Part shown: one piece after another, positions 2,446 to 43,933 of the stretch
Layout: each line of letters begins with the position of its first letter
Position numbering within the stretch: the stretch's first letter is position 1
Source: Candidatus Latescibacterota bacterium
GTDB lineage: Bacteria > Latescibacterota > UBA2968 > GCA-2709665
Direction: 5' to 3'
DNA length: 44,242 nt
Assembly (NCBI GenBank): GCA_963662665.2
Contig: CAXXJS010000043.1
Location: 1-44,242 of the forward strand
Program-made: the position numbers and the translations under genes
Notes under the pieces: model-generated
What the model was told of the DNA's origin: nothing
Databases searched by the model: none
Seen by the model: the letters and a program-made list of their open reading frames with translations, nothing else

Positions 2446-2685
2446 AATCGTTCGGCAGGTGATACCTCGCACTCAGTATTCCGAAAACACAACGACGGCG
2501 CCATTTAAGAAAAAATACCGCAGTCTTGCTGATATTTCGCGTATATTATTGCGAAATTGATGAATTCGCGACTCTTCCGGCCCTGCGCAGCCCCTGGGTT
2601 GCGGACGGATCGCGTCTTGAATTTTTCACCGCGGTCGATCAATGTGGTGGTGTCTTCCATAATGGCAACTGTAAAGGAGTTCGGT

Positions 2686-5600: not shown

Positions 5601-6792
5601 GCATACGCACAGGGTCAATTCGGTATCGTTCTCACGGAATGCGTCCATTCTTGCGTCCGGGTCGGAGGACGGCACCGTCATCGTCCGGGACCTGGAGACG
5701 GGGAACGCGGCAACGGTTTACGGGCACCGGTCCTTAACGTCAATGGCGCGTTCGCCCGATGGCGCCACACTGGCCTCCGGGTCGCTGGATAACAGCGTGA
5801 GGCTGTGGGACGTGGCCGCACGAACCGAGGTCGCCGTTCTGGAAGGGCACAGGGATTGGGTGCGCTCGGTGTCGTTTTCGCCCGACGGCGCGACACTGGC
5901 GTCCGGGTCGAGCGACCACACCGTCAGGCTTTGGGACGTGGCGACGCGATCCGAGGTTGCGACCCTCGACGCGCGCAGTTGGGTCTATTCGGTGGCGTTC
6001 TCGCGGGATGGGGGCACCCTGGCCGCCGGGTTGCGGCATGGCACGGCGACGGTTTGGAACATCGCGACGCTCGCCGAGGTTGCCATTCTCGAAGGACATG
6101 AACACACGGGCGGGGTCGCCTCAGTGGTGTTTCTCCCGGATGGGAGCACGCTGGCCACAGGATCCAGCGACCGCACCGTGAAGCTGTGGGACGTGGCGGC
6201 GCGAACGGAGGTTGCCACGCTTGAAGGGCACGATGGATGGGTCTATTCGTTGGCATTGTCGGAGGATGGGAGCATTCTGGCTTCCGGGTCTGAGGACGGC
6301 ACGGTCCGGATTTGGGACGTAGCCACCAGGACGGAGACCGCCAGGCTCGAAGGGCATACCGGCTGGGTGTATTCGGTGGCGTTCTCCGAGGATGGGAGTA
6401 CACTGGCCTCCGGGTCTCAGGACGGTACGGTCCGGATATGGGACGTGGCCGCGCGAACAGAAACCGCCAAACTCGAAGGGCATACCGGCTGGGTGTATTC
6501 AGTGGTGTTTCTGGAGGATGGGACCACGCTGGTTTCCGGATCGAGGGATGGCTCTATGCTGATATGGGATCTCTCCGATGACGTTCCGCCGCCTCCGGTT
6601 CCACCGCAAACTCCCAGCGCGGACTTCAACGATGACGGGGCCGTCAACTTCGCTGACTTTGTGCTGTTTGCGCGGCAATTCGGATTGCGGGAAGGCGATG
6701 CCGGATATGACGCAAAGTTTGACCTGAATGAGGATGGCGCCATCGGCTTCGGCGACTTTGTGCTGTTCGCAAACGCCTTCGGGCAGATTTGA
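2686..6792 (+). CDS. Secreted WD40-repeat protein: two WD40 modules, central Ig-like (Big_1-like) domain, C-terminal dockerin/EF-hand-like domain
   Basis: AAGGAG RBS before ATG 2686. Signal-peptide-like N-terminus. Many GH...V.SV.FS.DG..LASGS.D.TV.LWD repeats. SGDGQ...LVVAVRDQNG Ig motif. ADFNDDGAVNFADF...FDLNEDGAIGFGDF tail. Confidence 0.9.
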   Translation: MANEVFDKKKPLSMLALIALLFGFPVSGTAVDDMQEDYRKWHLPDGATGRLGRGAIGSGARALDVSPDGQTLAVASGIGVWLYDGSTASTLALLPSSGRVNSVSFSPDGGTLATVSEDGAVLLWNVATRSEAATFEGQAEKLTSAVFLPEGDELVATSDDGTVSLWDVASQSLTATFVGHTDPVTSVAFSPDGGTLATASEDGAVLLWDVSARTQAGTLEGLADDVTSLSFSQDGGTLATVSGDSTVLLWDVASPTEADTLKGDTGRITLVAFSPDADTLLTASDDGNVLLWNVNRRWVVDTLEGHTGRVTSVVFSNDGGTLATASKDGTVRFWDVETGYFVAFGGHKSAVNSVVFSSDSDTLISGSAGGAVILWDAGAGIQIDTFLGHGGSVTSMVFSPDADTLATASADSTVLLWDVASRSEVVALEGHAGGVTSVVFSPEGDALASGSEDGTVLLWEIATRSGVATFEGHRESVNTVAFSPDGRTVATGSSDYTIKLWDVASHSQVATLQGHSDRIVSVAFSQDGSRLASGSHDNTVKVWDVAARTEVATLTGHTANVNSVVFSPDWGTMASGSEDGTVLLWDLSEWPGLRPFSLEVVSGDGQEAATGGILADSLVVAVRDQNGEPLPDVPVAFTVSAGQGMLSGRFTVQHTRTGADGRAAVTLTLGNRAGTNIVLVTLGGRELAAFSAEGVGSSVVAMDGDFRKWHLPWRATARLGKGAISRSDRAVATSPDGRSVAVASGIGVWLYDASAARATALLPSDGHVLTLAFSGRGNLAVGRYDGQIELWNVASGARVATLAGHADGVNSVVFSSDGTTLASGSDDGTVRLWDLDLRTEIAILQRQGFGVASVAFSPDGTLLASGSSDNRIKLWDVASRTGVATFEGHADGITSVLFSPDGGTLASGSGDRSVRLWDVAARTEVVTLEGHGGPVTSVSFSSDGATLASGSADGKVKLWDIPTRELINTLERHTHRVNSVSFSRNASILASGSEDGTVIVRDLETGNAATVYGHRSLTSMARSPDGATLASGSLDNSVRLWDVAARTEVAVLEGHRDWVRSVSFSPDGATLASGSSDHTVRLWDVATRSEVATLDARSWVYSVAFSRDGGTLAAGLRHGTATVWNIATLAEVAILEGHEHTGGVASVVFLPDGSTLATGSSDRTVKLWDVAARTEVATLEGHDGWVYSLALSEDGSILASGSEDGTVRIWDVATRTETARLEGHTGWVYSVAFSEDGSTLASGSQDGTVRIWDVAARTETAKLEGHTGWVYSVVFLEDGTTLVSGSRDGSMLIWDLSDDVPPPPVPPQTPSADFNDDGAVNFADFVLFARQFGLREGDAGYDAKFDLNEDGAIGFGDFVLFANAFGQI

Positions 6793-8839: not shown

Positions 8840-11800
8840 TTACCCACTCGACCCAACCGGCTCGAAGAGGACGGTGTCGCCGACAACGTAGTCCACAATT
8901 TGAACCCAGGCCCCGGTCGCCAAATTCTGAAGCCGGTCGCCGTCACCTTTATTGGGGTCGATGTGAACGGAGGTCCGGACGCGGCCGGGCGGCCAGGACC
9001 CCTCGTTGCTCGCATTGGATATCAACGCCCAGTCGTCGTTCGCGCCGGTCTGGATCCGCGTACCGTTGAGGTTGCCGGACTTGGCCAGGATGTGAAAGCC
9101 GAAGTCGATCCTGCCGTCTTCGGCGGCGACCACCTTTGCACGCCCCAGGAGCGAGGTTACGTCCAGCGTGAGCCGATTGACTCGTACTCCCTCGCGCTCG
9201 GCGGCTTCAACGCGATAGGTGTGCGCCCGGCCGTCCGGGTTGACGGTGATGCGGTCACCCGCGGCGATGCCCTCCAGGCCTTCTACGTCAATCGTGCACG
9301 CGTCTCTGTCGAGGGCGACAATGCGGCCGGTTTGCCGGGCGCCGCCGACGGTGAGCGATGTCTCTGCGTTCTGGAACGCGGAAGCGCCCACGGTAGATAT
9401 TCGCCCGTCAACCACGGCCGCGAGCGCGCCCTGCAACGTTACGCCGTCATCGAAACGCGTGTGTTCGCCGGGATCCGCGTCGGGCGCCCAGTATAGCGCG
9501 ATTTCCCTGCCCCGCGCGGTGGTGAGCCTGACGCCGGTGGCGGTGGGAGACGGGGCGGTAACGGCGACCGCTTTGGCGATGGTGGGTTCGCCGGTTCTGG
9601 GTTCGAAGACGAGGTCGACGCAGGTGGTATCGTTTTGAGGCGTCCGTCGCCAGATGACGGGCTCGTAGAGGTAGTTGGACGTTTCGGGGGTGCCCATCGC
9701 CTGCGCCGCGCGGGTTGTGAACAGGCGGGCGCCGTCGGTGACGTTGAACTGATAGAGGTCCAGGTGTACGTCGGGTTCGGTTTCCGATTGCCACGCCCCG
9801 CTGAAGGCCGCCGGCGCCAGGCCGGTCGACACGTTGTCCATGTAAGCGAGAGCGGTATGGTCCGGGTGCGGCAGGTTACCGGTTTGACCGCGTGCGATAT
9901 GGGCGCCCGCAACCGTACCGGTTTGAGGCTGAAGTCCAGCGTTGTCCGGCCTGAAGACGCCTTCAAGCCCGCGGCAAGTACGCCAGTGTTCCGCGCCTCC
10001 CGTGATCCTGGAGAGGTCGAGGAGGGCGACGCCGTCGCCGTCGGTTTCCACCAGGGCGATGAGGCGGCGGAACGTAACGCCGAGCCTGCGCCAACCGCGT
10101 CCCGCGTGGTGCGCCCATCGGTGCGCCTCGACGTCCAGCGCCTGGACGCCGTCCGTAAAGAGGCTCCGCACCAGGCCCCCGCGGCCGGCGCTGACCGGTT
10201 CCCCCGGAGGCAGGTCGGACCAGACGGTGTTGTGGGTTGCCCAGTGGGATTCCCAGGGAGACATGCTGGCCCAGGACTGGGGATATCCCAGATCGGTCAG
10301 AAACGGGCGCTCGAACGCGAACAACTGGACGTCCAGAAGGTCCCGGTGGCGGTGGTGGAGCGTATCTCCGTAGACGATCCCGGCGGCAGCGCGCTCGGGC
10401 GCCTCGGCTGTGCGGAGAATTGCGATGCCGACGCCGTCGTGGACAGTGGGTCCCAGTGCCAGGTGCCGTCTGCTCCGGACTGCGGAGCGGATCTCTTTTA
10501 CCCGCGGGTGATCGGTGAAGGCTACGGCGCGGTCCAGAAGATCGGGATCCATGGGCGGATGGAAGAGGTCGTTTTCAAGGCGGATGGTGTCCTCTCCCTT
10601 GAAGCCCGCGGAACCGGGGGCGGATCCATCGCCGAACTGGAAATAGGATTTGCCGGCCATGGTGATCTCGTGCAGGGCGCGGGGAACGTGTGCGCCCCGC
10701 CGATCGTCGAAGAGGGATGGGTAGTCAGATTCCGGGTAGGCTTCGGGTTGCAGGGCACGAAGGTTTCGGAGGTGATGCTCCAGGTCGAACAGCCCGTCGC
10801 TGTGAATCGAGTTGTAGCCTCCCGTGGCCTCCTGGGGCGTACCGTCCGGGAAGAAGTCGTTGGTGGTGAAAACCCGCAGCGTGTCCGGCCCTTCATCGTA
10901 AATCCAATCCATCACGTCCCGCGCGTCGGGGCGGTCCAGACAGCGCAGAATACTGAACGCCCCCTGGCTCTCTCTGGGAAGGTTGCTGCTCGCGCCACGG
11001 TCCAGCGTGACCTGGAGCAGACAGGCCAGCATTTCTTCCGTGAGTTGACAGGCATCTTCGGGAGTCTGAACGGAAAGGCCCATCGATTGGGCGCGTTTGA
11101 CGAGTTCCCCGTCTTCACGCATCAGCGGCCAGACCGTATCGTATGCCAGTGCGAGGCTCGCTATCAGATACGGGGTGTCGATGCTGTAACGAATGCTGCC
11201 CTTGGCGCGGAGCGCCTGAACCGGGTCCGACTCGTCCGCCCAGTCGGTCTGACCCCAGTCCCAGGGTTCTTCCACCCCCTTCGAGGGGCCGTATCGGAAC
11301 TGGGGGACGGAGGCCACATAAAGCTCTTCCTCTGCATAGCGAAGCAGTATCAACCCCAGCTGCCGCGCGCGGGATTCATCGAACCCGCCAACGCGCAGGG
11401 CGTTAGTCAGAGCGCCGATTCCCGAATGGAAGCTGCGGCATTGATCCCGGTGATAGGTGGCTGCAAACAGATAGATGTGACCCTCGGCGTCGAAATAGCC
11501 GTACCCGTCGTCCGGACATTCGCCCGAAATATAGTCGTCGTCCGTCAGGTCGTTGCTGGGATAGACCGAAGCGCAATTGGGGCACTCGGACTTGAAATCA
11601 CAGGGAAGGTGGTTGCGAACCCAGGGATAAAAGCCACTGTGTTTGAATATCGCCGTACCGCAGTTCGGACAACCCTGGTGGCAGTTGGCAAAGTGCGCTT
11701 TGGGCATTTCCGCGCCAGGAAGCTGCGACCAGACGGTTTCGTCGGGCTGGGACGACCACCAGGCGGCGGTTTCTTCGTTTACGCGATCGGATACGGGTTC

Positions 11801-12157
11801 GTCCTGCAGCGTCTGCCGGGTCTTTGCCGGTTGGTAGTCCTTCTCCATGGGCCAGCGGCGGGGCCACCACGCGCCGTTGTAGACGTGCGGCCGGCGAAGG
11901 TCGTCCAGCGTTCGGACGCTGATGGCGGCTTCCGCGGTCTTGCCGCCGTGTGTGGCGCGCAGGGTGTATTCTCCGGCCTGGCCGGGAGACCGCAGATAGT
12001 GGTAGACCGCCCCGTCCCGTTCGGACCACCTGGTGGCGATCCGTTCGAAATAATCCGCCGAAAGCGCGACGTCGGCGTCCGGCGCCTGAACCGGGAGGCG
12101 GAAGCTGCGCCCAGGCAGAATGACCCTGGGCCGCCAGGGTATGGCAGGATTGGACAT
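8840..12157 (-). CDS. Heparinase II/III-like polysaccharide lyase-family protein
   Basis: AGGAGA RBS before ATG 12157. E-x-x-GGYN, FGD, HRHRDLL (HxHxD), DLGYP and HNTV motifs. Two CPNC motifs near the N-terminus. Confidence 0.75.
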   Translation of the reverse strand: MSNPAIPWRPRVILPGRSFRLPVQAPDADVALSADYFERIATRWSERDGAVYHYLRSPGQAGEYTLRATHGGKTAEAAISVRTLDDLRRPHVYNGAWWPRRWPMEKDYQPAKTRQTLQDEPVSDRVNEETAAWWSSQPDETVWSQLPGAEMPKAHFANCHQGCPNCGTAIFKHSGFYPWVRNHLPCDFKSECPNCASVYPSNDLTDDDYISGECPDDGYGYFDAEGHIYLFAATYHRDQCRSFHSGIGALTNALRVGGFDESRARQLGLILLRYAEEELYVASVPQFRYGPSKGVEEPWDWGQTDWADESDPVQALRAKGSIRYSIDTPYLIASLALAYDTVWPLMREDGELVKRAQSMGLSVQTPEDACQLTEEMLACLLQVTLDRGASSNLPRESQGAFSILRCLDRPDARDVMDWIYDEGPDTLRVFTTNDFFPDGTPQEATGGYNSIHSDGLFDLEHHLRNLRALQPEAYPESDYPSLFDDRRGAHVPRALHEITMAGKSYFQFGDGSAPGSAGFKGEDTIRLENDLFHPPMDPDLLDRAVAFTDHPRVKEIRSAVRSRRHLALGPTVHDGVGIAILRTAEAPERAAAGIVYGDTLHHRHRDLLDVQLFAFERPFLTDLGYPQSWASMSPWESHWATHNTVWSDLPPGEPVSAGRGGLVRSLFTDGVQALDVEAHRWAHHAGRGWRRLGVTFRRLIALVETDGDGVALLDLSRITGGAEHWRTCRGLEGVFRPDNAGLQPQTGTVAGAHIARGQTGNLPHPDHTALAYMDNVSTGLAPAAFSGAWQSETEPDVHLDLYQFNVTDGARLFTTRAAQAMGTPETSNYLYEPVIWRRTPQNDTTCVDLVFEPRTGEPTIAKAVAVTAPSPTATGVRLTTARGREIALYWAPDADPGEHTRFDDGVTLQGALAAVVDGRISTVGASAFQNAETSLTVGGARQTGRIVALDRDACTIDVEGLEGIAAGDRITVNPDGRAHTYRVEAAEREGVRVNRLTLDVTSLLGRAKVVAAEDGRIDFGFHILAKSGNLNGTRIQTGANDDWALISNASNEGSWPPGRVRTSVHIDPNKGDGDRLQNLATGAWVQIVDYVVGDTVLFEPVGSSG

Positions 12158-12276
12158 GGCAAGGTCTCCTGGAAGTGTGGAAATGCGGTCGGAGAAACGG
12201 CCGGATGCCGCTTTCCGGCCTAACGGCACGTTGAAAAAGCCCATCCAGGCTGCAGAGCGACTTTATCAACGGACTG

Positions 12277-29697: not shown

Positions 29698-29733
29698 TTG
29701 ACAATCTGAATAACAACACCATAAATTAGATTG
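29698..29733 (+). promoter_or_regulatory. sigma70-type promoter with overlapping inverted repeat upstream of the TBDR module
   Basis: TTGACA (29698-29703)-18 bp-TAAATT; CAATCT/AGATTG inverted repeat; AT-rich. Confidence 0.5.
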
Positions 29734-29896
29734 AAGTATGATAGTATCAGGGGGCGTTATATTTCGGCTTCTGTATGGATTAGCCGCCGTGCGTTATCTT
29801 GCAATAAATGGATGAAATGGAATCCTGCAGTTTTTAGCAGGAATTCGACTCGGATTTTGCTCCGACGCTGAATTATCGCACTTGGAGGGTACGGGT

Positions 29897-32800
29897 ATGA
29901 ACAGATTGAAGACCGATTTCGCCGTCGCACTTGCACTGTTTGCCATTCTTGTTTTTTCCGGTGCGGCCTTTGCCGGTACGACGGGGAAGATCGTTGGCAA
30001 GGTAACCGACGAGAACGGGGAGGCCCTGCCCGGCGCCAGCGTGGTACTTGAAGGAACGAGGCTGGGAGCATCCACGGATGCCCAGGGGTTCTATGTGGTT
30101 ATCTCAGTCGATCCTGCAGTCTACAAGATGACGGCATCCATGGTTGGTTACCATTCGGTGACCCAGGAACAGGTCCAGGTGCGGTCCGACTTCACCACAA
30201 CGGTGGATTTTCAACTTCGCGAGACGGAGTTGGAGTTGGAAGAAATGGTCGTGGTTGCGGAAGCGCCTCCTGTAGAGCCCGACAAGACGGAGAGCCGCTA
30301 CGTGGTCACAGCCCAGGATATCGCGCGTACGCCGATCCTTAGAGACGCCTCTGAGTTCGTCGCGTTGGAAGCAGGTGTGGCGGTGGACGGCAGCGGCGTG
30401 ATCCGCGGGGGTCAGGTGGAAGATAACCTGATTTACGTCGACGGCGTGCGGCTGCAGAACCAGGACGGACGAGCAGGTCCCACGTCGTCCGGAAGGCAGT
30501 GGTGGGGTACCAACGTAAAGGCGCTGCAGGAGGTCTCAGTAATCACGGGAGGGATGAACGCCGAATACGGGAATGCGCAGGCGGGCGTGGTGCAGATGGT
30601 GACGCGGGATGGAGGATCCAACTACCACGGCGAGGCGGAGTACCGGCTGACGCCAGGCGGCAAGAAACACTGGGGCGCCAACGTATACGATGCCCCCGAA
30701 CACCGCGGCCACACGCGATGGAACGATCCGTCGTGGACCTCGGAGGTGGATCCCGAGACCGGCGCGCTGGTACACCAGCGGATGAACTATACGGATCAGC
30801 GGGGCCACTATGTCGATGCCTATCTCGGCGGCCCGCTTCTCCCGGAAACGTCATTCTTCGTGAGTTCGCGGCACCAGCGGGATGCAGCTACCTTTCCCGG
30901 GGCATGGTCCGTGCGCCCGTTCAATGCCCGGAACACGGCGAAACTGACCATCCGTGCGCACGACAGCGTCAAGATGCAAATCGGCTGGTTATACGACCGT
31001 TGGAAGACTTTCAACAACGGCGCGCTGGGGGGGACAACCCCGTCCGTCAGCAACGTACTCAGGGGTCCCGGCCGCGACATTTTTCTGCCTGAAGGGTCGC
31101 CCGCGGGGGAAACGATCAACGCCGAAAGCGTTGTCTACGGTGTGGTAACGCACACGGTCAGTCCGCGCACCTTCTATGAACTAAGACTCTCCCGGTATCA
31201 GAGTACACAGGATACCAGCGGTGTGCCGAACACCACGGCGGATATCGGCACCGATGGTGACGGCTGGTTCTATACCGGCCGGGGGGACGTTCGCGCGTAT
31301 ACCTTAGGAAAACAGACCAGGAACGCTCTGAAATTCGATCTGTCCAGCCAGCTGACGAAAACGCACTTCTCCAAAATAGGGATCGACTTCACGGGCTATA
31401 GCAACCATTTCATTCGCGAGGGCAACACACCCGGCGACGCGCGTAAACAAATCCTGTATATCGGAAATCCGGAGCCGGGACAGCCGATAACGCCGAAGCA
31501 GTTCGCGGCCTATATCCAGGACAAGATGGAATTCGAGGGATTCATCGTAAACGCCGGAATCCGCTACGACCGCTTCTGGGGCGCCGACGTTCCGATAATG
31601 GGGGCGCTGCGGGCGTTCCAGTACACGACGATGTCGCGATATCTCACGACGCCCAGGTACCCCATGAAGCCCATTGTGAACTGGAGTCCGCGGCTTGGGA
31701 TCTCGCACCCGATCACATACAGGTCGAGCCTGCATTTCTTCTACGGGCATTTCTACCAGTTGCCGAGTTTCTACCAGATGTTTCACGACCAGTGGTTCGG
31801 TTCGGGAGACGGGATACCGGGCATCGGTTTCAGCGAATACACCAGCCACTACCGTCCGGCGCCCACGTCAATCTCAAGGCCGATATGGGACAATACGGCG
31901 CGGACGATCAGCTTCGAACTGGGCGCAGACTGGAATTTCGTATCCGACTATACACTCGCGATGGCGACGTTCTACAAGAGCGCCTCCTTCCAGGAAACCG
32001 GAGGTTGGGACGTATTCCTCTATCCGGAGTTGCGCGGCGCAGGGGTTCGCCTCCGCCAGCGACTCTCCAGCACCCTGTCAAACATCCGCCTCGAAGACAC
32101 GCGGGGTCTGGAGTTCAGCCTCAGGAAGGGATTCAGCCATTACTTTTCGTTCCGCGCGGCCCTCAACCTGGCCTGGAGCGACTACAGCCTCGGCGGGGGC
32201 GGCACCGTGAGCAACGGCGCCACCGTGATACCCGATTCGAACTACATTGCCAGCGGCAACTACTTCTTCGCGTGGGAGGCTGCGGGCGGTTCGGAGCGTC
32301 CCGTAGCCCTCACCGATGAGCAGATCCGGATCATCGGTCACGGCGCCAATGAGGCCATAAGAGCCGCACAGGCGGACCGGCTGGTAGCCGGTGGTTACGT
32401 CTACGACATGTCGACAAACAAGGACGCGATCGTGCCCACCTGGGAAGAGAACTGGCTGTCTGATGCCGCCGCCGAGGGGGCACGCGGCCTCTGGATCGTG
32501 CATGGACACAGGGCCAATCCCGGCGTGGACGTGGGTCGCCGGAGCCAGGGAAGCCTCCAGATGTTCCTGTCCACGCCGCAGGATTTCGGCATGGGTCCTA
32601 AGATTGGAGGAAGCACGCTTCTGGGGGGCGTCAATGCCAACCTGATCTACCGGATCTATACCGGGTCCCAGTTCACCTATCTGGTCCTCGAGGGTACGCG
32701 TCAGACCGCACGAGGTCCATTACGCACGGTTATGGACCTGAACGTGCAGAAACGCTTCGAATTGGGCAGGGCAAGCGCCGACGTCTTCCTGGAGGTCTTC

Positions 32801-32974
32801 AATCTGTTCAACCAGAAGGACGCGTTGGCGTCGGGAACCGACTATATGTGGTGGGGGCTGCAAAAGCCCAGGCCGAACGACGCGAACTATCTCAACTATG
32901 GCGATTTCCAGGACCGCAGCCGATATATTGGCGAACCCCGGATAACCCACGTGGGTATTCGCATGCGGTTCTAA
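29897..32974 (+). CDS. TonB-dependent receptor with N-terminal carboxypeptidase-regulatory-like domain
   Basis: Signal peptide. GKIVGKVTDENGEALPGASV, IRGG...YVDGV plug, GGMNAEYG, YIQDKMEF, SPRLGISHP, VFNLFN. C-terminal Phe. Confidence 0.92.
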   Translation: MNRLKTDFAVALALFAILVFSGAAFAGTTGKIVGKVTDENGEALPGASVVLEGTRLGASTDAQGFYVVISVDPAVYKMTASMVGYHSVTQEQVQVRSDFTTTVDFQLRETELELEEMVVVAEAPPVEPDKTESRYVVTAQDIARTPILRDASEFVALEAGVAVDGSGVIRGGQVEDNLIYVDGVRLQNQDGRAGPTSSGRQWWGTNVKALQEVSVITGGMNAEYGNAQAGVVQMVTRDGGSNYHGEAEYRLTPGGKKHWGANVYDAPEHRGHTRWNDPSWTSEVDPETGALVHQRMNYTDQRGHYVDAYLGGPLLPETSFFVSSRHQRDAATFPGAWSVRPFNARNTAKLTIRAHDSVKMQIGWLYDRWKTFNNGALGGTTPSVSNVLRGPGRDIFLPEGSPAGETINAESVVYGVVTHTVSPRTFYELRLSRYQSTQDTSGVPNTTADIGTDGDGWFYTGRGDVRAYTLGKQTRNALKFDLSSQLTKTHFSKIGIDFTGYSNHFIREGNTPGDARKQILYIGNPEPGQPITPKQFAAYIQDKMEFEGFIVNAGIRYDRFWGADVPIMGALRAFQYTTMSRYLTTPRYPMKPIVNWSPRLGISHPITYRSSLHFFYGHFYQLPSFYQMFHDQWFGSGDGIPGIGFSEYTSHYRPAPTSISRPIWDNTARTISFELGADWNFVSDYTLAMATFYKSASFQETGGWDVFLYPELRGAGVRLRQRLSSTLSNIRLEDTRGLEFSLRKGFSHYFSFRAALNLAWSDYSLGGGGTVSNGATVIPDSNYIASGNYFFAWEAAGGSERPVALTDEQIRIIGHGANEAIRAAQADRLVAGGYVYDMSTNKDAIVPTWEENWLSDAAAEGARGLWIVHGHRANPGVDVGRRSQGSLQMFLSTPQDFGMGPKIGGSTLLGGVNANLIYRIYTGSQFTYLVLEGTRQTARGPLRTVMDLNVQKRFELGRASADVFLEVFNLFNQKDALASGTDYMWWGLQKPRPNDANYLNYGDFQDRSRYIGEPRITHVGIRMRF

Positions 32975-33089
32975 GATGGCGTCGTCGCATTGGCCGCAGG
33001 GTCAACGCGTGCGACGAGGTCCTTTTCGAAACGGCCCGGTCAGACCGGATGCGGGTACAATCGATGCTGACACGAAGGAGACCTGGGAG

Positions 33090-35396
33090 ATGATCAAGAT
33101 TTCGAAGATCGAGGCGATGGCAGTGCTTCTTGCGCTGATGATATGCTTGCCGGACTCCGCGCCGGCACAGGAAAACCACAGGTTCCAGACCCGCGCGAAG
33201 GTGTGGGACATGTTCTGGAATTACGGGACTCAGGGCGTTTCCGAAGATCCGGACGCCTGGTTGAGCTACTACCGCCAGATGGGCATGCAATATCCTGGCG
33301 TTTGGACCCGGCAGTATTCCACGGAATTCCAGGACTACTGGGGAGAGCGGAGCTGGGGTTCCCTCCATCCGGCCTACGCGGCGTTGTTCGAATCCACGGC
33401 CACGATGCCCGGATTCAGCACGTACATAGCAACCCGGGCGCCGGACGACCCCGAGGGCGAGTATTACGTGTCGATTTCGAAGCCCCGCGCTATCACGGAC
33501 GATATCAGGATGATGTCCTACGATGCGTCCGCGGGTCCGGAGGCGGCTATCGGATACCCCAACTATTCGCCCGTAGGTCCCGCGATGGCCAACTGGTGGC
33601 CGGGCGAGTCACCGGTGGAAAGCAGGTACGTCACGGAAATACACAACTACCGGTACGGCCATTATATGGATTCCGATAAAGACAACTTCCCCGAGAGCCT
33701 CCTCGTCATGCGCTGGACCACGAAACGGGGGATCACGGTCACCAAAAAGGTATATACCTGGAGCTACCCCGACTACGACGATTTCCAGATTATGGAGTAC
33801 GAGTTCGAGAATACCGGAGACTCCGACGGGGACGGCGCGGCGGACGTGAACGGCGGCGCCGGGCTGCAGTTGAACGACACTTTTTTCGCCTTTTCGGTCC
33901 GCTTCTTCATCTCCCAATCCGGACACGGATGGATGAACTACGATGCGTGGTACCGAAACACCAAACCGACCGACAATGACGACTGGTTCAAGTTCACCGA
34001 GGCGGCGAACTACGACGGACCCGCCGCGGGCATGGGCATGAAAATGTGGTACGCTTATGACGGGGACAACCCACTGGTGCCGGGAGACGACATCGGCAAG
34101 CCCTACAACCCGTCCGCGGCAAACCCGGGTTACGCGGGGCGGCCGTCGCAGGTCCGGACACCGGGGGAGTTGACGGCATTTCAGTACTCAGGCTTCGCGC
34201 CCATCGCGTACCTGCCGTCTACGTCGAACGATCCGGGCGCCTTTTCCTACGACACGAAGGGCGATAACAGCTACGTCGCCCCCAGGATCGAAGACCAGCC
34301 CCACACGGTGAGATGGTGGGAATACCGGAACCGCGGCGATTTCGACGAGCCGGACCAGGAAAACCATTCCTTCCAGGAAATTTACGATCAGTTGATCGGC
34401 GCCGAATCCGATATCAGGGACAATCCACCCGTGGTCGGCGCCTGGCACGGGTCGATCGCGTACGGTCCCTACGACCTGGCGCCCGGCGACAAGGCGAAAT
34501 TCGTCTTCGTCCTGGCGGCGGCCGCGCCCGTGGAAGAGAATATCTGGGGATGGGCGAAGCAGGGCAGTCAGGCAGAAATGCGTACGGACAAGGCGTTCAA
34601 CAACCTGGTCAAGCACGTCAACAAAGCCAAAGAGGCGTTTCAGTGGAACTACGACCTCCCCGACGCGCCGCCGGACGTGAAGGTGGACGTGGGCGTGACC
34701 ACGGAAGGCTTCATATCTCTGGTCTGGGACGACACGGCGGATGACGCGGTCAATCCGGACTATACGGGTGAGGAAGCCAGAGACGTGAGTGGCTACCGGG
34801 TCTACCGGTCTCTCTTCAAACGGGACGACTGGGAACTGATGGTGGAAATCCCGCGGAAGTCAGACATATTCTACAGTGGCGGCAAGTACGAATTTATCGA
34901 TAAGAAATCGATCGCGGGATTCCTGTATGACTACAGTGTGCGCACCTACAGCGAGCCACACAACGACTGGAACGGAACGGGCATCGCCATTCCGTCCCTG
35001 GAGAGCGGAAACAGTTCGCCGGAGCAGTGGGTGAACGGTGTCAAGGTCTCCACACCCTTTGTCCCGTCCACGGCGCAGTCCGACCAGCTGGACAGGAAGG
35101 TGATCGTGACCCCGAATCCATACCGGGATGACGGCGCCCATGCCTATGAGAATAAGGGTCAGATCCGGTTTCTGAACATCCCGAGGAAGTGCCAGATCCG
35201 GATATACACCGTGGCCGGGGACCTGATCGCCGAGGTGAATCACGACGACCAGGGGCGGGGCGAGACCACCTGGAGCCAGACAACCATAGACAACGTGGGT
35301 TCGGCTTCCGCCGGCGTGTACTTTTACGTGGTTGAATCTCTGGTGGATGGGACAAGCGGAAAAACGCAACGGGGAATATTCGTTATCAGCAAGTGA
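33090..35396 (+). CDS. Secreted protein with FN3-like domain and T9SS-CTD/FlgD-Ig-like C-terminus
   Basis: AAGGAG RBS, signal peptide, YGPYDLAPGD, ISLVWD...GYRVYRS, VTPNPY...IRIYTVAGDLI...AGVYFYVV. Confidence 0.8.
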   Translation: MIKISKIEAMAVLLALMICLPDSAPAQENHRFQTRAKVWDMFWNYGTQGVSEDPDAWLSYYRQMGMQYPGVWTRQYSTEFQDYWGERSWGSLHPAYAALFESTATMPGFSTYIATRAPDDPEGEYYVSISKPRAITDDIRMMSYDASAGPEAAIGYPNYSPVGPAMANWWPGESPVESRYVTEIHNYRYGHYMDSDKDNFPESLLVMRWTTKRGITVTKKVYTWSYPDYDDFQIMEYEFENTGDSDGDGAADVNGGAGLQLNDTFFAFSVRFFISQSGHGWMNYDAWYRNTKPTDNDDWFKFTEAANYDGPAAGMGMKMWYAYDGDNPLVPGDDIGKPYNPSAANPGYAGRPSQVRTPGELTAFQYSGFAPIAYLPSTSNDPGAFSYDTKGDNSYVAPRIEDQPHTVRWWEYRNRGDFDEPDQENHSFQEIYDQLIGAESDIRDNPPVVGAWHGSIAYGPYDLAPGDKAKFVFVLAAAAPVEENIWGWAKQGSQAEMRTDKAFNNLVKHVNKAKEAFQWNYDLPDAPPDVKVDVGVTTEGFISLVWDDTADDAVNPDYTGEEARDVSGYRVYRSLFKRDDWELMVEIPRKSDIFYSGGKYEFIDKKSIAGFLYDYSVRTYSEPHNDWNGTGIAIPSLESGNSSPEQWVNGVKVSTPFVPSTAQSDQLDRKVIVTPNPYRDDGAHAYENKGQIRFLNIPRKCQIRIYTVAGDLIAEVNHDDQGRGETTWSQTTIDNVGSASAGVYFYVVESLVDGTSGKTQRGIFVISK

Positions 35397-35477
35397 GACG
35401 GTCGAATTACCGAGTCAGGGATTCCCGATTCGCCTTCTCGTCGAACCGCTCAACCGAAACGGAGAAGGAACAAACCT

Positions 35478-36431
35478 ATGAAACGGATCTTGTGGATTGG
35501 AATCGTGGCGTGTACGGGATATGCGATGCTGTCTCCCGGGGTTGCCTACTGCGACACGCAGAAGCGCCTCGGCCAGGCCGTATTCTCCGTGCACAAGGTG
35601 GACCACGGGGCGCGTGTCGCTGGCATGGGCGGGGCGTTTACGGCCATCGCGGACGACATCAGCACGATCTTCGTGAACCCGGCCGGACTCACCCACGTCG
35701 AGGAGATGGAGTATACACTTTCGTACACCCGCTGGCTCGTCGATACCCGTTTCTATTCGGGCGCACTCGCCTACAATACGGCCCGCGGTGTGGTTGGCTT
35801 GTCCGTAATGGCGTTTTCGGTCCCGGACGTTGAGGAAACAACCATCTATCAGCCGATCGGGACCGGCAGAATGCTGGAGATCGGTGATTTCAGCGTCGGC
35901 GGTTCTTACGCGACGAAGTTAACCGATAAGCTTTCGTTCGGATTTCAGGTGAGATGGACCCAGGAAACCATAGACGTGGACCGGCTGACCGGCGTGGATT
36001 TCAATTTCGGAACCACGTTCGACACGGGTTTCAGAAGCCTCCGTCTCGGGATGGCGTTCAAGAACCTGGGCAGAGACATCGAGTCGAGGGAAATCAATTA
36101 CCAGATGCCGGTTGCGTTCGACTTCGGTTTCGCGGTGGAAGTCTTCGGCGTCAAGGGCAGCGATGACTCCTATCTGACGTTTACGGGAGAGAGTCACTAC
36201 GCAACGGATTACTCGGAGCCGCGGTATCGTCTGGGCGGCGAACTTTGGCTGCAGAACGCGTTCGCGCTGCGAGGCGGCGTCAAACCCGGATACGATACAG
36301 AGGTGTTCAGTGTCGGTTTGGGATTGAAGGTCAAGCCCGTCGATGGCAAGGTTGTCCGAGTGGATTTCGCGTACAGCGACGGAAACGACTTCGAACCGCC
36401 GCTTCGTTTCAGCCTGAGCGGGTCGTTCTGA
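35478..36431 (+). CDS. PorV/PorQ family outer-membrane beta-barrel
   Basis: GARVAGMGGAFTAIADD...NPAGL, amphipathic strands, DFAY, C-terminal Phe. Confidence 0.85.
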   Translation: MKRILWIGIVACTGYAMLSPGVAYCDTQKRLGQAVFSVHKVDHGARVAGMGGAFTAIADDISTIFVNPAGLTHVEEMEYTLSYTRWLVDTRFYSGALAYNTARGVVGLSVMAFSVPDVEETTIYQPIGTGRMLEIGDFSVGGSYATKLTDKLSFGFQVRWTQETIDVDRLTGVDFNFGTTFDTGFRSLRLGMAFKNLGRDIESREINYQMPVAFDFGFAVEVFGVKGSDDSYLTFTGESHYATDYSEPRYRLGGELWLQNAFALRGGVKPGYDTEVFSVGLGLKVKPVDGKVVRVDFAYSDGNDFEPPLRFSLSGSF

Positions 36432-36473
36432 CGGAAGACTGACAGAGCGACAACCGCTTCGTTCAAGTCACAA

Positions 36474-36507
36474 GAAAAACCCCGGTTTTGCCGGGGTTTT
36501 TTTATTT
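36474..36507 (+). terminator. Intrinsic (likely bidirectional) terminator
   Basis: AAAAACCCCGG-TTTTG-CCGGGGTTTTTTTATTT. Confidence 0.85.
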
Positions 36508-37397: not shown

Positions 37398-38340
37398 AAC
37401 AAGATTCAACGCTCAAATCTGGACGGATCGGGTGTCGAAGACCTGGTCACCAGCGGTGCGAACAGTCCCACCGGGATCGCACTCGATGTATCCGGCGGCA
37501 AGATGTACTGGACGGACCGGCGCTCCGACAAAATCCAGCGGTCCAACCTGGATGGATCAGCGGTGGAAGACCTGATTACCAGCGGCCTGCATAGCCCGAA
37601 TGGACTGGCGTTGGACGTATCCGGCGGCAAGACGTACTGGGCCGACGCCGGTACGAACAAGGTTCAGCGCGCCATCCTGGACGGCTCCGGCGTGGAAGAC
37701 CTGGTAACCGGCGCCGTCGTCCGCCGGCACCTACTACTACGGCGCCTGTGTGGATGCGGTATCGGGTAAGTCCGACACCGGAAACAACTGCTCTGCCGCG
37801 GTAAGCATAACGGTCGCGACGGTGACGCCACCCGCCACGGGAACGTCGAAACTGTACTGGTCGGACTGGGGCACGGACAAGATTCAGTCCGCCGACCTGG
37901 ACGGTTCAAACGTCGAGGACCTGATTACCAGCGGCCTGAGCGTGCCGTACGGTCTGGCGCTCGACGTGTCCGGGGGCAAGATGTACTGGACGGACCGGCA
38001 AAACGGCAAGATTCAACGCGCGGACCTGGACGGTTCCAACGTCGAAGACCTCCTCACCAGCGCCGACGGGCTTGTGGATCCATCCGGACTGGCCGTTCGC
38101 GCCGGCAGCAGCAGCGGCGGAACCTACGGCGTCGGCGACGCACTTCCGAATTTTCCCACCGGCTTCTTTGTTCCCCGGCTTCTTCGGAATGCAAACCTCA
38201 CGATAAGCGGCGGGCGCGCGGTACTCAGCTTCCAGAACGGCGGCCTGATCGAACTTCAGAATGGCACCCGATATACCTGCGTCGCCGCCGGTGGATGCGC
38301 CATCGAGGGCGGACGCGTCACCAGGGGCACCTTTGAATAG
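37398..38340 (+). pseudogene. YWTD (LDL-receptor class B) repeat / CARDB-like protein remnant
   Basis: NKIQRSNLDGSGVEDL...KMYWTD repeats. Out-of-frame join near 37711 to APSSAGTYYYGACVDAVSG...NNCS, then more YWTD repeats. No start codon or signal peptide. Confidence 0.7.
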
Positions 38341-38353
38341 GGGTAGCTGACTT

Positions 38354-39847
38354 ATGAAACGGCCATTTACGAATCGGCAATTCGCCTTTTTGTCACTGGT
38401 TGCCGCCTTGATCGTTTTCACCGTGCCGGCTCCGGGCTACGCCCAGGTTCCCGTACCCGCCGTGCAGGAGTCGATCACCGTGTCGACGTCAAGCCCGTTG
38501 ACAGAGGAGATTCTGGATGGGAGCGTGGTGACCGTGACGCTTGCCGGGCGTACATTCGAGCAGTCCATCTTCTCCATCCGTCGGGCGGTGTCGGTCTCGG
38601 GAATTGCGGGCGTGAGCGTGGGCACGTTCGGTATCCGGCGCGTCAACGACACGAAGGTGACGGTTGAACTGACGTTCAACGGCGATATCGACAGCGACGG
38701 TACGTTGACGTTTACGGTGGGCGCGATCGCGAACTACAGCGGCGAACCACTCGTTGCGACATTGCCGGTTGCCGCCGAGGCTAGCGGCGGAACCAATCAG
38801 GTTCCCACGTTCAGCGAAGGCGCCAGCGCAACGCGCAGCTTTGCCGAGAACACCGGCGCGGGACAGAACATAGGCAATCCGGCGACCGCGTCGGATAACG
38901 ACGGCGGTACGCTGACGTACAGCCTTGAGGGTACGGATTCGGCGAGTTTCGCCATCGTCTCAACCAGCGGTCAGTTGCAGACCGGATCGGGCGTCGCCTA
39001 CGACTACGAGGTAAAGAACCGCTATGACGTGACGGTGCGGGCGTCCGACGGACAGGGCGGCAGCGTTACCATTCACGTGACCATTGACCTGACGGATGTG
39101 AGCGAACCTCCGGTAACGTCGGCGCCGCAACTGTATTGGAATCACGTCAATTACAAAATCCAAAGCGCCAACCTGGATGGATCAAACGTAAAAGACGTGT
39201 TGGTCACCGGCCCTAGCGGACAGAGCGCCTCGTGGGGGCTGGCGCTGGACGTGGGGAACGGCAAGCTGTACTGGACGGACTGGGGCGCCGACAAGATTCA
39301 ACGCGCGAATCTGGACGGTTCGAACGTTGAAGACCTGGTCGCCAGCGGTCTGGGCCGCCCAAGCGGGCTGGCGCTGGACGTGGGGAACGGCAAGATGTAC
39401 TGGATGGATCGGGAGACGTCCAGGATTCAACGCGCGGACCTGAGCGGCTCGAACGTGGAAGACCTGGTCACCAGCGGTATAAACGAGCCGGTCGCGCTGG
39501 CGCTGGACGTGGGGAACGGCAAGATGTACTGGACGGACTGGACCGCCGACAAGATCCAGCGCGCGGGCCTGGACGGCTCGAACGTTGAGGACCTGGTTAC
39601 CAGCGCCGACGGACTGGACAGGCCATTCTGGCTGGTTCTGGCGGTCCCGGCGACTGCCACACCTCCAGCGCCGCAGGGACAGAAGACGGCCGATTTCAAC
39701 GGCGACGGCATCGTAAATTTCGCCGATTTCTTCGATTTCGTGGACGCCTTCGGCACCACTGACGCCCAATATGACCTGGACGACAACGGCATCGTAAATT
39801 TCGCCGATTTCTTTGAGTTCGTGGATGCATTCGGGACGTCGGGATAG
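38354..39847 (+). CDS. Secreted protein: cadherin-like domain, YWTD repeats, dockerin/EF-hand-like tail
   Basis: Signal peptide. NQVPTF...FAEN...ASDND...YDYE...VRASDG (cadherin). YWTD repeats. ADFNGDGIVNFADF...YDLDDNGIVNFADF. Confidence 0.88.
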   Translation: MKRPFTNRQFAFLSLVAALIVFTVPAPGYAQVPVPAVQESITVSTSSPLTEEILDGSVVTVTLAGRTFEQSIFSIRRAVSVSGIAGVSVGTFGIRRVNDTKVTVELTFNGDIDSDGTLTFTVGAIANYSGEPLVATLPVAAEASGGTNQVPTFSEGASATRSFAENTGAGQNIGNPATASDNDGGTLTYSLEGTDSASFAIVSTSGQLQTGSGVAYDYEVKNRYDVTVRASDGQGGSVTIHVTIDLTDVSEPPVTSAPQLYWNHVNYKIQSANLDGSNVKDVLVTGPSGQSASWGLALDVGNGKLYWTDWGADKIQRANLDGSNVEDLVASGLGRPSGLALDVGNGKMYWMDRETSRIQRADLSGSNVEDLVTSGINEPVALALDVGNGKMYWTDWTADKIQRAGLDGSNVEDLVTSADGLDRPFWLVLAVPATATPPAPQGQKTADFNGDGIVNFADFFDFVDAFGTTDAQYDLDDNGIVNFADFFEFVDAFGTSG

Positions 39848-41742: not shown

Positions 41743-42094
41743 GGTTTACCACAAGGCCCAATTGCGACCTGCAAACGCGTTAGGTATTCCGAAGGGAGCT
41801 ACACGAAAACTGCACGCGAGCGTCGGATGTGGCTCTCCGTTGCAGTTGCTTAAATCTACCCGATTGCGGACGTGGAAATGAATCAATCCTGCAGCCACAC
41901 CTGGACACCGCCCAAATCGTAGACGAAAACCGAAGACTGTCCAATGACGGGATCTTCAACCGGCTTGGCAGGCAGACTTCCATTGACACGTGAATTCGAA
42001 GTTCCGGATCGAAGCGACAACCCGATTTCTCAGAAAGAGGACAACCCGCCGCAATAACTTTAATACGCCCGTACTTGCGGGAAGGAGAACCGTT

Positions 42095-43933
42095 ATGATG
42101 AAGGCTCGAACATTGCTCACTTCGGCGTCCATGATTCCCGTTGTCGGCCTGTTCGTATTATCCGGTGTCGTTTCCAATACGCCTCCGGCACTGGCGAATT
42201 GTCAAATCCCCGCCGGCGCGACGCCTCCTGTGGCACCGCAAACAACGGCCCAACAAGTGGAAGACGGCAGCGCCACCCTTAAGGACTTCACGCTGGCCGC
42301 GAGAGATCACTTCAAGTTCGGACCTACGACTCCGGAAGATTCGTTTTACTTTGGGTGTCTCGTCAGGCAGGAGGGGAGCCATTGGCGTTCCGGTTCCACG
42401 TACATCGTGTCTCTGCTGGCCGACGGCAGGGTGTTCGTTCACGCAAAGGATATGGCATTGTCGGGCAGGTTGCTCAATCCCGTGATCTATGGATCGATCC
42501 TTTCTGCTTTGGGAGTATCCCTGACCGACCTGGCCAATCTGGCCTCTCCCGATCCAGCTACCCAAGCCCAGGCTTTCGGCGCCCTAATGGGCACATTGAT
42601 GCAGGAACCGGATGCGCCATTCGATGCGACCACCCCTATTCCAGGTCTAAGTCCGGGTATACCAGGCGCCTCCGGCTATTCCGCCGTATATCTCTCTGGC
42701 AATTTCCGAGTCCCGGTAATAATGCTCGTCGGATTCGATCTCGATGAATCTCACCTGGCTGAAGAAGACATCGATTACGGCGCCCCCGCCATATCCGCCG
42801 AGGACGTGGTGGACCGGGGAAGTTTGAAGGCCTTCGTCACGCAGGCGGGGGAGTTCATTCTCGAACTCCAGAAAAGCGGCGATTTCGCCGCTTCCTCCAA
42901 ACTCAGGATCGCCTTGAGGGACCCGGACGGGCCCTGGAGACACGGTTCCGTGTACCTCTACGTCCTGGATCTCACCAGCAACATCATTCTGTTCCACGGC
43001 GCGTTTCCGGACAGATTCGAATTACGGCCTCTGATAGCCACCGTCCGTGACGCTGTTACCGGAGAGCTTGTTTTGCCGTTGGTCATCGAGGCGGCGAAGA
43101 GTAGCCCGGAAGGCGGCTTCGTGGAGTATTACTTCGACGACCCCACTGACGATACGGACGGCGCCGATATCCCCAAGGTGGGCTACGCCCGCGAGTACAA
43201 AGGTGAATTCGATGCTGGCGGACGTGTAGTAACCCTCGACTTTATCGTCGGGTCGGGGTTCTACGGGCGCGCGGCCGACGTCGGGACGGATCCCGGTACG
43301 GATGTGGAGGCCACGGTGCTGGGCGACGCGGTGGAGGGATTGAACGTGGCGTTTTCGCGCGCCATTGCCGGCCGACAGTCCGAATATGCCTGGAGCGCAG
43401 TTACCGATGCCGCCGGCCTGTTGTCCCTGACCATTTCCAGCGAGGATGGCGTGAGTGGCTACTATCGGGCCCGGGCCACCAACGCCGATGGCGAGGTTGT
43501 TGGTCAATGGAGCAGCATACCGCTGAACGAAGGCCGCCGCCAGGTCCTGGAACTGACGCTGGGCGGGGGTGCGAGGGTCGTACGGGTCGCATCGCTGGCT
43601 ACAGCCGAGCGGGTGGCCGCTGCCAAGCCGGCATTCGCGGCTGAGGTTGTGCCGGAAGCCGGCGGTCTGGCGCCCAATTCGCCCAACCCGTTCAACAGCG
43701 CCACGCTGATCACCTACCACCTGTCCGGCGCGGGTCCTGTGAAGCTGGTGATCTACAACGTTCTGGGCCAGCCCGTAAGGACGCTGGTGGATGAGTCCCG
43801 CGCCGCGGGCAGCTACCAGGTGACGTGGGATGCGCGCGACGACGGAGGCTTGTTGCTGTCGACGGGAGTGTATATCGCACGGCTGACCTATCCTGGCGGC
43901 GCGCAGACGCAGCGATTGCTATACCTCAAATAG
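42095..43933 (+). CDS. Secreted Cache-domain-like protein with T9SS-CTD/FlgD-Ig C-terminus
   Basis: AAGGAG RBS and signal peptide. Two repeats (WRSGSTYI / WRHGSVYLYV). GGFVEYYFDDP...KVGYA...IVGSGFY. NSPNPFNSAT...IYNVLGQ...WDARD...TGVY. Confidence 0.8.
   Translation: MMKARTLLTSASMIPVVGLFVLSGVVSNTPPALANCQIPAGATPPVAPQTTAQQVEDGSATLKDFTLAARDHFKFGPTTPEDSFYFGCLVRQEGSHWRSGSTYIVSLLADGRVFVHAKDMALSGRLLNPVIYGSILSALGVSLTDLANLASPDPATQAQAFGALMGTLMQEPDAPFDATTPIPGLSPGIPGASGYSAVYLSGNFRVPVIMLVGFDLDESHLAEEDIDYGAPAISAEDVVDRGSLKAFVTQAGEFILELQKSGDFAASSKLRIALRDPDGPWRHGSVYLYVLDLTSNIILFHGAFPDRFELRPLIATVRDAVTGELVLPLVIEAAKSSPEGGFVEYYFDDPTDDTDGADIPKVGYAREYKGEFDAGGRVVTLDFIVGSGFYGRAADVGTDPGTDVEATVLGDAVEGLNVAFSRAIAGRQSEYAWSAVTDAAGLLSLTISSEDGVSGYYRARATNADGEVVGQWSSIPLNEGRRQVLELTLGGGARVVRVASLATAERVAAAKPAFAAEVVPEAGGLAPNSPNPFNSATLITYHLSGAGPVKLVIYNVLGQPVRTLVDESRAAGSYQVTWDARDDGGLLLSTGVYIARLTYPGGAQTQRLLYLK

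Follow-up and report, generated by a model that had tools for sequence, protein, structure and literature searches.

How might a bacterium without SusD capture nutrients at its surface? SusCD and RagAB explain much of the feeding of Bacteroidota; how the uncultured relatives concerned here, namely Latescibacterota, KSB1, Ignavibacteriota, Calditrichota and Fidelibacterota/Marinimicrobia, capture their substrates is not known. The question is raised by a locus on a 44,242-base contig (C43) of a Candidatus Latescibacterota genome that is 4.86 Mb in size, 92% complete and 5.4% contaminated; the whole of this contig is referred to here as the window. Between positions 29698 and 36507, the listing of open reading frames (ORFs) contains three co-directional genes on the plus strand, which encode a TonB-dependent receptor, a secreted middle protein (MID) and an outer-membrane barrel, together referred to as the trio. 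The reading that we favor, with a probability of roughly 0.55, is that the trio constitutes a TonB-dependent uptake module whose surface partner, MID, is exported by the T9SS (type IX secretion system) and retained by a PorQ-like barrel of its own, much as PorZ is held by PorQ. The genes and the domains of MID are as follows.

29897..32974, plus strand: TonB-dependent receptor, 1025 residues (signal peptide, N-terminal CarboxypepD_reg extension, TonB-box-like EEMVVVA, plug, 22-strand barrel)
33090..35396, plus strand: MID, secreted, 768 residues, no Pfam family, not a lipoprotein
33177..34649, plus strand: galactose-mutarotase-like β-supersandwich (MID residues ~30 to 520)
34668..35009, plus strand: fibronectin type III (FN3)-like domain (MID residues ~527 to 640), assigned from Foldseek FN3 matches and secondary structure
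35103..35393, plus strand: divergent T9SS-type C-terminal β-sandwich (MID residues 672 to 768), the predicted barrel-contact surface
35478..36431, plus strand: PorV/PorQ-family outer-membrane barrel, 317 residues, of a trio-specific subfamily

The Three Genes Recur and Diverge as a Block

A preliminary description of this DNA had proposed that the three genes form a module and had named conserved linkage and co-phylogeny as ways to check it. Our analyses revealed the receptor–MID–barrel order six times in the genome itself (once each on contigs C43, C25, C26 and C57 and twice on C40), and 6 of the 12 receptor-like ORFs of the genome belong to trios. With one genome scanned per species, MID relatives turned up in 301 stretches, of which the best 80 were examined. 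The receptor gene lies directly upstream of the MID gene in all 80, and the barrel gene lies directly downstream in 78; the two misses (L012 and L052) are at contig edges, so that every one of the 78 testable loci has the barrel. A more distant set was obtained by scanning with six distant family members that are 28 to 36% identical to one another. This set has 57 MID-family ORFs; of those that could be tested, 42 of 47 have the receptor upstream, 46 of 52 have the barrel downstream, and 37 of 42 have both in place. Two Calditrichaceae loci are among the misses, as are one tandem receptor–MID–receptor–MID locus and probable matches to the FN3 or C-terminal domain (CTD) only. Titles in the distant set name Fidelibacterota, Ignavibacteria/Melioribacter, KSB1, Kryptoniota, Calditrichota, Fermentibacteria and some metagenome-assembled genomes (MAGs) labeled Bacteroidota, and the tail of the list holds FN3-only matches from unrelated phyla; MAGs labeled Melioribacter and Ignavibacteriaceae are among the carriers of the module. 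Within the phylum, MID was found at E ≤ 1e-20 in 59 of 168 genomes, with a distribution that follows families: 20 of 21 genomes in the window's own family, 28 of 31 in one sister family and 2 of 76 in the largest family, with no more than six copies counted per genome.

The three proteins also diverge together. Trees were inferred with FastTree (LG+gamma) for 84 modules from 35 genomes, and patristic distances correlated at 0.951 for MID and receptor, 0.931 for MID and barrel, and 0.949 for receptor and barrel. Shuffling among paralogs of the same genome, which preserves the species signal, gave mean correlations of 0.35 to 0.37 with a maximum of 0.56, and none of 1000 shuffles reached the observed values. 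These data show that the modules duplicate and evolve as blocks, with no exchange of parts, a pattern that cognate partners would give and that tight linkage alone would give as well. Both checks thus bore out the proposed linkage, and we regard it as close to certain that the three genes are a unit of function.

The Barrel Is Predicted to Bind the MID Tail

The barrel scored 156.8 bits against the NCBIfam model of the PorV/PorQ family (NF033709, cutoff 90), and the six trio barrels of the genome scored 144.7 to 175.5 bits. It lies below the equivalog cutoffs for PorV (NF033710, 51.8 versus 250 bits), PorQ (NF033711, 68.5 versus 220) and PorV2 (NF052325, 39.4 versus 325), and its sole solved sequence relative is PorV (6h3i_F, E 1e-5). 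The trio barrels are 36 to 53% identical to each other and 21 to 28% identical to the three other PorV-family proteins of the genome, which are a canonical-type PorV adjoining an M6-like T9SS cargo and noncanonical proteins on C37 and at C26:6960. The barrel had been described as PorV-like, which holds at the level of the family; these sequence comparisons place it in a separate subfamily rather than with PorV itself.

Multimer modeling of the three proteins had also been proposed as a check. A complex model of barrel residues 26 to 317 with MID residues 520 to 768 scored 0.91 in three of three runs, compared to 0.00 for the best of three controls. Of 157 solved complexes, 116 attained that mark, as did 2 of 215 mismatched pairs; these counts hold only roughly here, as the complex model used purpose-built alignments. 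The runs share at least 88% of contacts, with a partner pLDDT (predicted local distance difference test) of at least 73. The modeled interface consists almost entirely of the CTD, MID residues 672 to 768. Specifically, the VVPNP-type motif of the CTD packs on a barrel loop around T122 to G130, where the invariant loop residues T122, I123, G128 and T129 contact the invariant CTD residues P675, N676 and P677. The model thus makes it quite probable that the MID tail binds the trio barrel. As the core of this interface is invariant across paralogs, a private pairing of each MID with its own barrel is not established.

MID Combines a β-Supersandwich with a Divergent CTD

The MID ORF is open from 32976; homologs align only from the signal-peptide methionine at 33090, which favors the later start and yields the 768 residues given in the preliminary description. 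No Pfam family lies above cutoff for MID, the NCBIfam and Pfam enzyme families were unmatched, and the sequence contains no lipobox. Its homologs are annotated only as hypothetical or FN3 proteins. In a library of 1.84 billion representatives, the relatives of MID number 1293 at E ≤ 0.001, 305 at E ≤ 1e-10 and 53 at E ≤ 1e-30; in many of them the likeness is confined to the C-terminal half.

An AlphaFold model of MID built from 22 sequences has a pLDDT of 77.0 and a predicted TM-score (pTM) of 0.80. Foldseek searches with the whole model returned chiefly FN3 and tail-fiber matches with low TM-scores, and the domains were assigned from a wide VIA structural search against representatives. In that search the supersandwich matched 4zle_A (Z 16.2, root mean square deviation [rmsd] 3.9, 253 residues aligned) and 1lf6_A (Z 15.1, rmsd 3.0, 222 aligned). 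Enzymes of families GH94, GH15, GH65 and GH116 begin with a domain of this kind of fold, which is also present in aldose epimerases. No catalytic (α/α)6 domain follows it in MID; a helical linker and the FN3-like domain stand there instead. Residues 27 to 100 (window positions 33168 to 33389) are poorly modeled, with pLDDT values of 35 to 58, and contain the invariant residues R31, R35, W39, G46, G49, Y68 and P69; a motif akin to these recurs in distant family members. This segment may fold only against a partner, and a role in docking is our guess.

The C-terminal domain matched PorZ (5m11_A) with a Z of 11.0, an rmsd of 2.7 and 20% identity over 90 aligned residues. The best NCBIfam match of the tail was likewise the PorZ CTD, at a subthreshold 28.5 bits. 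MID scored below the type A CTD cutoffs (TIGR04183, 17.4 versus 23 bits; PF18962, 15.6 versus 27) and the type B cutoff (CHU_C PF13585, 23.1 versus 27 bits, E 8.2e-5). The tails of the paralogous MIDs scored 16.2 to 21.3 bits on TIGR04183, and a CTD match at E < 0.01 was obtained for five of the six MIDs of the genome with NCBIfam and four of six with Pfam. An ordinary T9SS cargo in the window (41990 to 43933, 647 residues, with an FlgD_ig/type A tail) passes the TIGR04183 cutoff with 39.6 bits. The earlier assignment of a T9SS-like CTD to MID therefore stands for the fold, which matches that of PorZ, but not for the curated sequence models. With a tail of CTD fold and a signal peptide, in a genome that encodes SprA but in which PorKLMN were not detected, MID is a candidate T9SS cargo in the broad sense.

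The Receptor Has the Domain Architecture of Oar

The receptor ATG follows a GGAGG that is kept in orthologs. The protein matches Pfam CarbopepD_reg_2 (67.5 bits), CarboxypepD_reg (PF13620, 64.8 bits versus a cutoff of 32.3) and Plug (PF07715, 39 bits versus 23.9), all above cutoff, and none of the Pfam barrel models at E ≤ 0.01. It also carries a conserved EEMVVVA, which we take to resemble a TonB box and in which V119 and A121 are invariant among 24 sequences. The structure model (pLDDT 79.1, pTM 0.76) matched solved TonB-dependent transporters, in agreement with the preliminary description. The best Foldseek match was PirA (5fr8_A, E 5.1e-24, TMq 0.49), and the first SusC appeared only at rank 11 (8aa4_A, E 8.1e-22, TMq 0.44); as modeled, the receptor is no nearer to SusC than to siderophore receptors. 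Against the SusC/RagA family model TIGR04056 it scored 47.8 bits versus a cutoff of 368.25, over residues 31 to 149 only. Its CarboxypepD_reg extension, plug and 22-strand barrel are the architecture of the Oar subclass.

SprA Is Present in the Examined Genomes That Carry the Trio

The T9SS translocon SprA was identified in the genome with 639.7 bits against a cutoff of 200, together with a PorU-like sortase of 1916 residues with a type A CTD that scored 308.3 bits, under its cutoff of 420. Within the phylum, 163 of 168 genomes have SprA (162 above cutoff), as do five of five distant trio-bearing genomes, and the five phylum genomes without it all lie outside the MID-bearing families. The GldK (PorK) model gave only partial matches to FGE-sulfatase domains in the genome, all under cutoff. 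The core T9SS genes, named earlier as a check, were thus recovered in part, with SprA present and PorKLMN undetected with the models used. This could mean that divergence has put the motor and ring beyond the reach of the GldK, GldL, GldM and GldN models, or that the T9SS is organized otherwise in this phylum.

Retention of a CTD on a barrel has a precedent. According to the relevant passages of PMC10202324, the PorZ CTD is retained and bound to PorQ, and cognate PorV-like barrels are proposed to shield such CTDs from cleavage. Type B cargo of Flavobacterium johnsoniae has cognate shuttles, as described in the corresponding part of PMC12618676.

The Module Resembles, and Differs from, Four Known Systems

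The trio shares with SusC/SusD and RagA/RagB a TonB-dependent transporter with a CarboxypepD_reg-type extension encoded beside a surface partner, the multiplication of paralogous modules within one genome and the sugar regulators and enzymes in some flanks. It differs in that the receptor lies outside the SusC/RagA family and in that MID is β-rich rather than TPR-like, has no lipobox, and has a T9SS-type tail and its own barrel. The preliminary description had noted that no SusD is present, and indeed SusD PF07980 has no match in the whole genome, at 92% completeness, or to MID, with Bacteroides thetaiotaomicron positive as a control. As regards polysaccharide utilization loci (PULs), the locus contains no SusC- or SusD-family gene and no clear carbohydrate-active enzyme (CAZyme) in the window flanks; some of its relatives have LacI, ROK or lyase-like neighbors. 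The module is thus SusCD-like in outline, yet belongs to neither the SusC nor the SusD family and is not a PUL by gene content.

PorZ delivers anionic lipopolysaccharide to PorU, and has β-propellers where MID has the supersandwich. MID resembles it in that the PorZ CTD is the best match of the MID tail both in NCBIfam and in structure, with a modeled contact between CTD and barrel. In the portion of PMC10202324 on the Porphyromonas gingivalis T9SS attachment complex, PorZ and PorQ pair a T9SS protein that, like MID, has about 750 to 770 residues with a PorV-like barrel on which its CTD is retained. The trio differs from PorZ–PorQ in that its barrel is well under the PorQ equivalog cutoff, as given above, and in that it occurs six times per genome, each copy tied to a TonB receptor.

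In F. johnsoniae, cargo genes for proteins with type B CTDs are linked to genes for their own PorV-like barrels, which are needed for secretion and placement (relevant passages of PMC12618676 and PMC10202324). The known cargoes there are adhesins without a receptor partner; the trio barrel is of the PorV/PorQ family and not PorP/SprF, and the MID CTD is under the CHU_C cutoff. The receptor resembles Myxococcus xanthus Oar in its order of CarboxypepD_reg extension, plug with TonB box and large barrel, as set out in the relevant part of PMC6434023, a likeness of domain architecture and not of a sequence alignment with Oar itself. Oar exports PopC, which according to the same part of PMC6434023 has no signal peptide; the trio shows no pointer to export.

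We found no description of the trio in the literature covered by our search, from which subscription journals and supplements were outside. The matching passages of the genome papers on Latescibacteria (PMC4454575), Melioribacter (PMC3534657) and Caldithrix (PMC5317091) do not mention it.

Genes Next to Related Modules Point to Sugars in Some Loci

A gene for a small OMP_b-brl-like outer-membrane protein (OMP) of about 240 residues lies directly 5′ of the receptor gene in five of the six trios of the genome and in 55 of 102 testable modules. In the genome, these genes are located as follows.

C40:378139-378861, plus strand: small OMP_b-brl-like protein
C26:18227-18931, plus strand: small OMP_b-brl-like protein
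C57:44052-44771, minus strand: small OMP_b-brl-like protein
C25:72806-73552, minus strand: small OMP_b-brl-like protein
C40:82783-83520, minus strand: small OMP_b-brl-like protein

The gene is absent before position 29897 of the window and in the closest orthologs (L001 to L009), and is present in the 81%-identical L010. Thus, the order of three genes described earlier for the window recurs, but most relatives add a fourth gene that the window copy is without; the ancestral module probably had four genes, with the small OMP lost from the window copy and its 92 to 97%-identical orthologs.

Downstream of one paralogous trio (C40b), the same strand encodes a TPR protein, a frame that bears TonB_C, and a DUF6785/DUF6784 protein. 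TonB_C has six matches in the genome, one of them just 3′ of a paralogous trio. The DUF6785/DUF6784 proteins, of which the genome encodes 22, have about 660 to 700 residues and nine hydrophobic segments and are candidates for a family of inner-membrane permeases. Examples are listed below.

C40:388094-389587, plus strand: DUF6785/DUF6784 protein
C26:32253-33734, plus strand: DUF6785/DUF6784 protein
C40:68627-70150, minus strand: DUF6785/DUF6784 protein

DUF6785 is found near three of the six trios of the genome, 2.7 to 6.6 kb downstream, and in 6 of 42 nonredundant loci it is encoded by one of the two genes that come next after the barrel gene. These 42 loci (of 47) come from a scan of the nearest upstream and the two nearest downstream ORFs at E ≤ 1e-12, in which 114 ORFs out of 122 selected were covered and about half matched no family. 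Neighbors that we grouped as sugar-linked, a grouping made by this analysis itself, occur in 13 of the 42 loci and comprise LacI/periplasmic-binding regulators, ROK, PfkB, GFO/IDH/MocA, heparinase II/III-like, PcRGLX-like, BNR, Laminin_G_3, Golvesin_C, NAGPA, enolase superfamily and DegT proteins. TPR proteins occur in 5 of the 42. FG-GAP/ASPIC-UnbV and TPR proteins are encoded downstream of some trios. Proteins with an FGE-sulfatase domain, a domain also present in PorK/GldK, are encoded downstream of the C25 trio (C25:64043-65829, minus strand) and at L071:10897-11874.

Proposed Mechanism and Alternatives

In the mechanism that we propose, MID would cross the inner membrane via Sec, and its divergent C-terminal domain would route it through the T9SS translocon SprA. 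MID would then be kept on the surface, its C-terminal domain staying bound to the PorV/PorQ-like barrel encoded next to it, like PorZ on PorQ. Carried on the FN3 spacer, the supersandwich would bind, and perhaps cut, the substrate, most likely a glycan or sugar derivative, which MID would hand to the adjacent Oar-class TonB-dependent transporter for movement inward. For other copies of the module, the downstream TonB and the polytopic DUF6785 protein would complete the path into the cell. The PUL-like part of this reading is drawn from fold and gene context, and we put the chances that the module imports a glycan-like nutrient at about even. Hand-over to a receptor that sits beside the barrel is conjectural. 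That MID forms a lid on the receptor, an arrangement suggested in the preliminary description, is a conjecture that we consider doubtful.

Several observations weigh against the uptake reading. The MID CTD is under every curated CTD cutoff. The complex score may reflect likeness to solved PorV/CTD-type complexes, rather than binding by the window copy, because complexes of PorV type have already been solved. SprA is near-universal in the phylum and MID is in 59 of its 168 genomes, so that their co-occurrence is a weak test that says little. The models for GldL, GldM and GldN (PorL, PorM and PorN) were unmatched in the genome, and matched no control genome either, so that the negative does not show absence. 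Tight linkage alone would yield the observed co-divergence, which is no proof of contact. TPR, FGE-sulfatase or FG-GAP proteins follow 5 of the 42 scanned loci and three of the six trios of the genome, and the flanks of the window copy, as noted above, encode no clear CAZyme. Finally, function does not follow from likeness of fold; MID could be an enzyme.

In this last case MID would be a surface-anchored depolymerase, for example a lyase or hydrolase built on the supersandwich, with the receptor importing its products and the anchoring unchanged. The supersandwich also occurs in polysaccharide lyases and aldose epimerases, and the VIA search matched 5xq3_B (Z 10.8, rmsd 4.0 with 226 residues aligned) and 5no8_A (Z 10.7, rmsd 3.6 with 205 aligned). 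Between residues 230 and 340, MID has numerous invariant positions of polar or acidic character along with Asp-rich motifs, and some loci have lyase-like neighbors. Nevertheless, the best structural matches are to noncatalytic accessory domains, neither an (α/α)6 nor another known catalytic domain follows, and MID matched no enzyme family in Pfam or NCBIfam, which leads us to consider a depolymerase unlikely.

A second alternative reverses the direction, such that MID is an adhesin or coat protein that the Oar-class receptor helps into the outer membrane or across it, in the manner of Oar with PopC, and the barrel serves as an anchor. The Oar-subclass architecture of the receptor (as treated in the relevant part of PMC6434023) fits such a role, as do the TPR proteins encoded after several trios and the wealth of WD40, LDL-receptor and cadherin repeat proteins in the window, which suggests host contact. 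However, the Sec signal peptide and T9SS-type CTD of MID and the SprA of the genome would already provide an outward route, and PopC, as stated above, lacks a signal peptide. The downstream TonB and polytopic membrane protein and the neighboring sugar regulators and kinases suit import, and display of MID by the receptor is in our judgment distinctly improbable.

Less credible still is that the barrel acts apart from the T9SS, as a channel of FadL type for a hydrophobic substrate, with a MID tail that is simply Ig-like. The barrel has a weak match to Pfam Toluene_X/FadL (E 4.8e-6, 25.8 bits versus a cutoff of 29.7), far exceeded by its PorV/PorQ match, and the complex model seats a CTD resembling that of PorZ on this barrel with all controls at 0.00. 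That the three genes are neighbors by descent only and act separately has almost nothing to commend it: block duplication alone can give linkage and co-divergence, but one would expect a unit that lacked a joint function to fall apart, and the order is kept over several phyla, down to about 25 to 30% identity and through repeated duplication.

The favored reading of the trio as an uptake module could extend beyond this genome. It is possible, at somewhat less than even odds, that an old alternative to SusCD exists across the Fibrobacterota–Chlorobiota–Bacteroidota (FCB) group, in which an Oar-class transporter is paired with a supersandwich protein that the T9SS displays permanently on a PorQ-like barrel, and of which PorZ–PorQ is a specialized offshoot. 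A small OMP would often be encoded upstream of such a system and TonB and a DUF6785 permease downstream, and lineages without SusD and Bacteroidota-style surface lipoproteins would use the T9SS to anchor their transport partners. If uptake is the role of the trio, the T9SS would gain the job of fixing transport partners, beyond secreting enzymes and adhesins; a large family of hypothetical proteins, the 1293 representatives above, would gain a function; and the trio would mark uptake loci where SusD-based PUL prediction finds nothing. A separate question is how the T9SS is powered in a phylum with near-universal SprA and undetected PorKLMN. The module is widespread, multicopy and directly testable.

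Regulatory Signals and Surroundings of the Window Copy

The signals at the two ends of the locus are the following.

29698..29727, plus strand: promoter-like site TTGACA-18-TAAATT, upstream of the receptor gene, 10 of 12 positions matching
36473..36506, plus strand: intrinsic terminator, a GC-rich hairpin (36473 to 36503) followed by a U-run

A single promoter and a strong terminator had been proposed for the locus. The promoter-like site has the consensus match listed, but a scan found three such sites where 2.9 are expected in shuffled sequence, so that the site is not significant by itself. The terminator was corroborated: its hairpin has a centroid energy of −20.4 kcal/mol (z = −3.8), and 0 of 200 shuffles fold equally well; a simple terminator scan left it unlisted. 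The window leader shares CCTTGACA with two of six aligned ortholog leaders. The leader segment 29598 to 29660, 5′ of the promoter-like site, carries CCTTCGAC three times and GCTCAG(G/A) twice, and a comparable pattern of CCTTCGAC and GCTCAG is seen in the ortholog leader L007; these repeats are a possible operator or a small repeat. Rfam yielded no riboswitch or other family in the window, nor in the leader at E ≤ 1, so that RNA gives no clue to the substrate.

Upstream of the trio, the window encodes PhyH, metallophosphatases, an SDR, an enzyme of the enolase superfamily, an M24 peptidase and a protein resembling ceramidases; downstream it encodes LDL-receptor-repeat and cadherin proteins. 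Specifically, 37750 to 38340 and 38354 to 39847 encode proteins with LDL-receptor class B (YWTD) repeats, one of which also has a cadherin domain, and 2557 to 6792 encodes a WD40 protein of 1411 residues with 22 WD repeats. Such eukaryote-like repeat proteins suggest a host-associated lifestyle. Two ORFs overlap on opposite strands, 8840 to 12244 (minus, 1134 residues) and 9635 to 12223 (plus, 862 residues), neither with a Pfam match.

Loci with 92 to 97% protein identity to the window copy are mostly titled as Latescibacterota MAGs, with a few titled Gemmatimonadota. L002, L003, L005 and others are among the Gemmatimonadota-titled MAGs, with loci 93 to 94% identical to Latescibacterota-titled ones, and distant trio loci also appear under Bacillota, Actinomycetota and Deferribacteres titles. 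The public phylum labels of trio-bearing MAGs thus look inconsistent.

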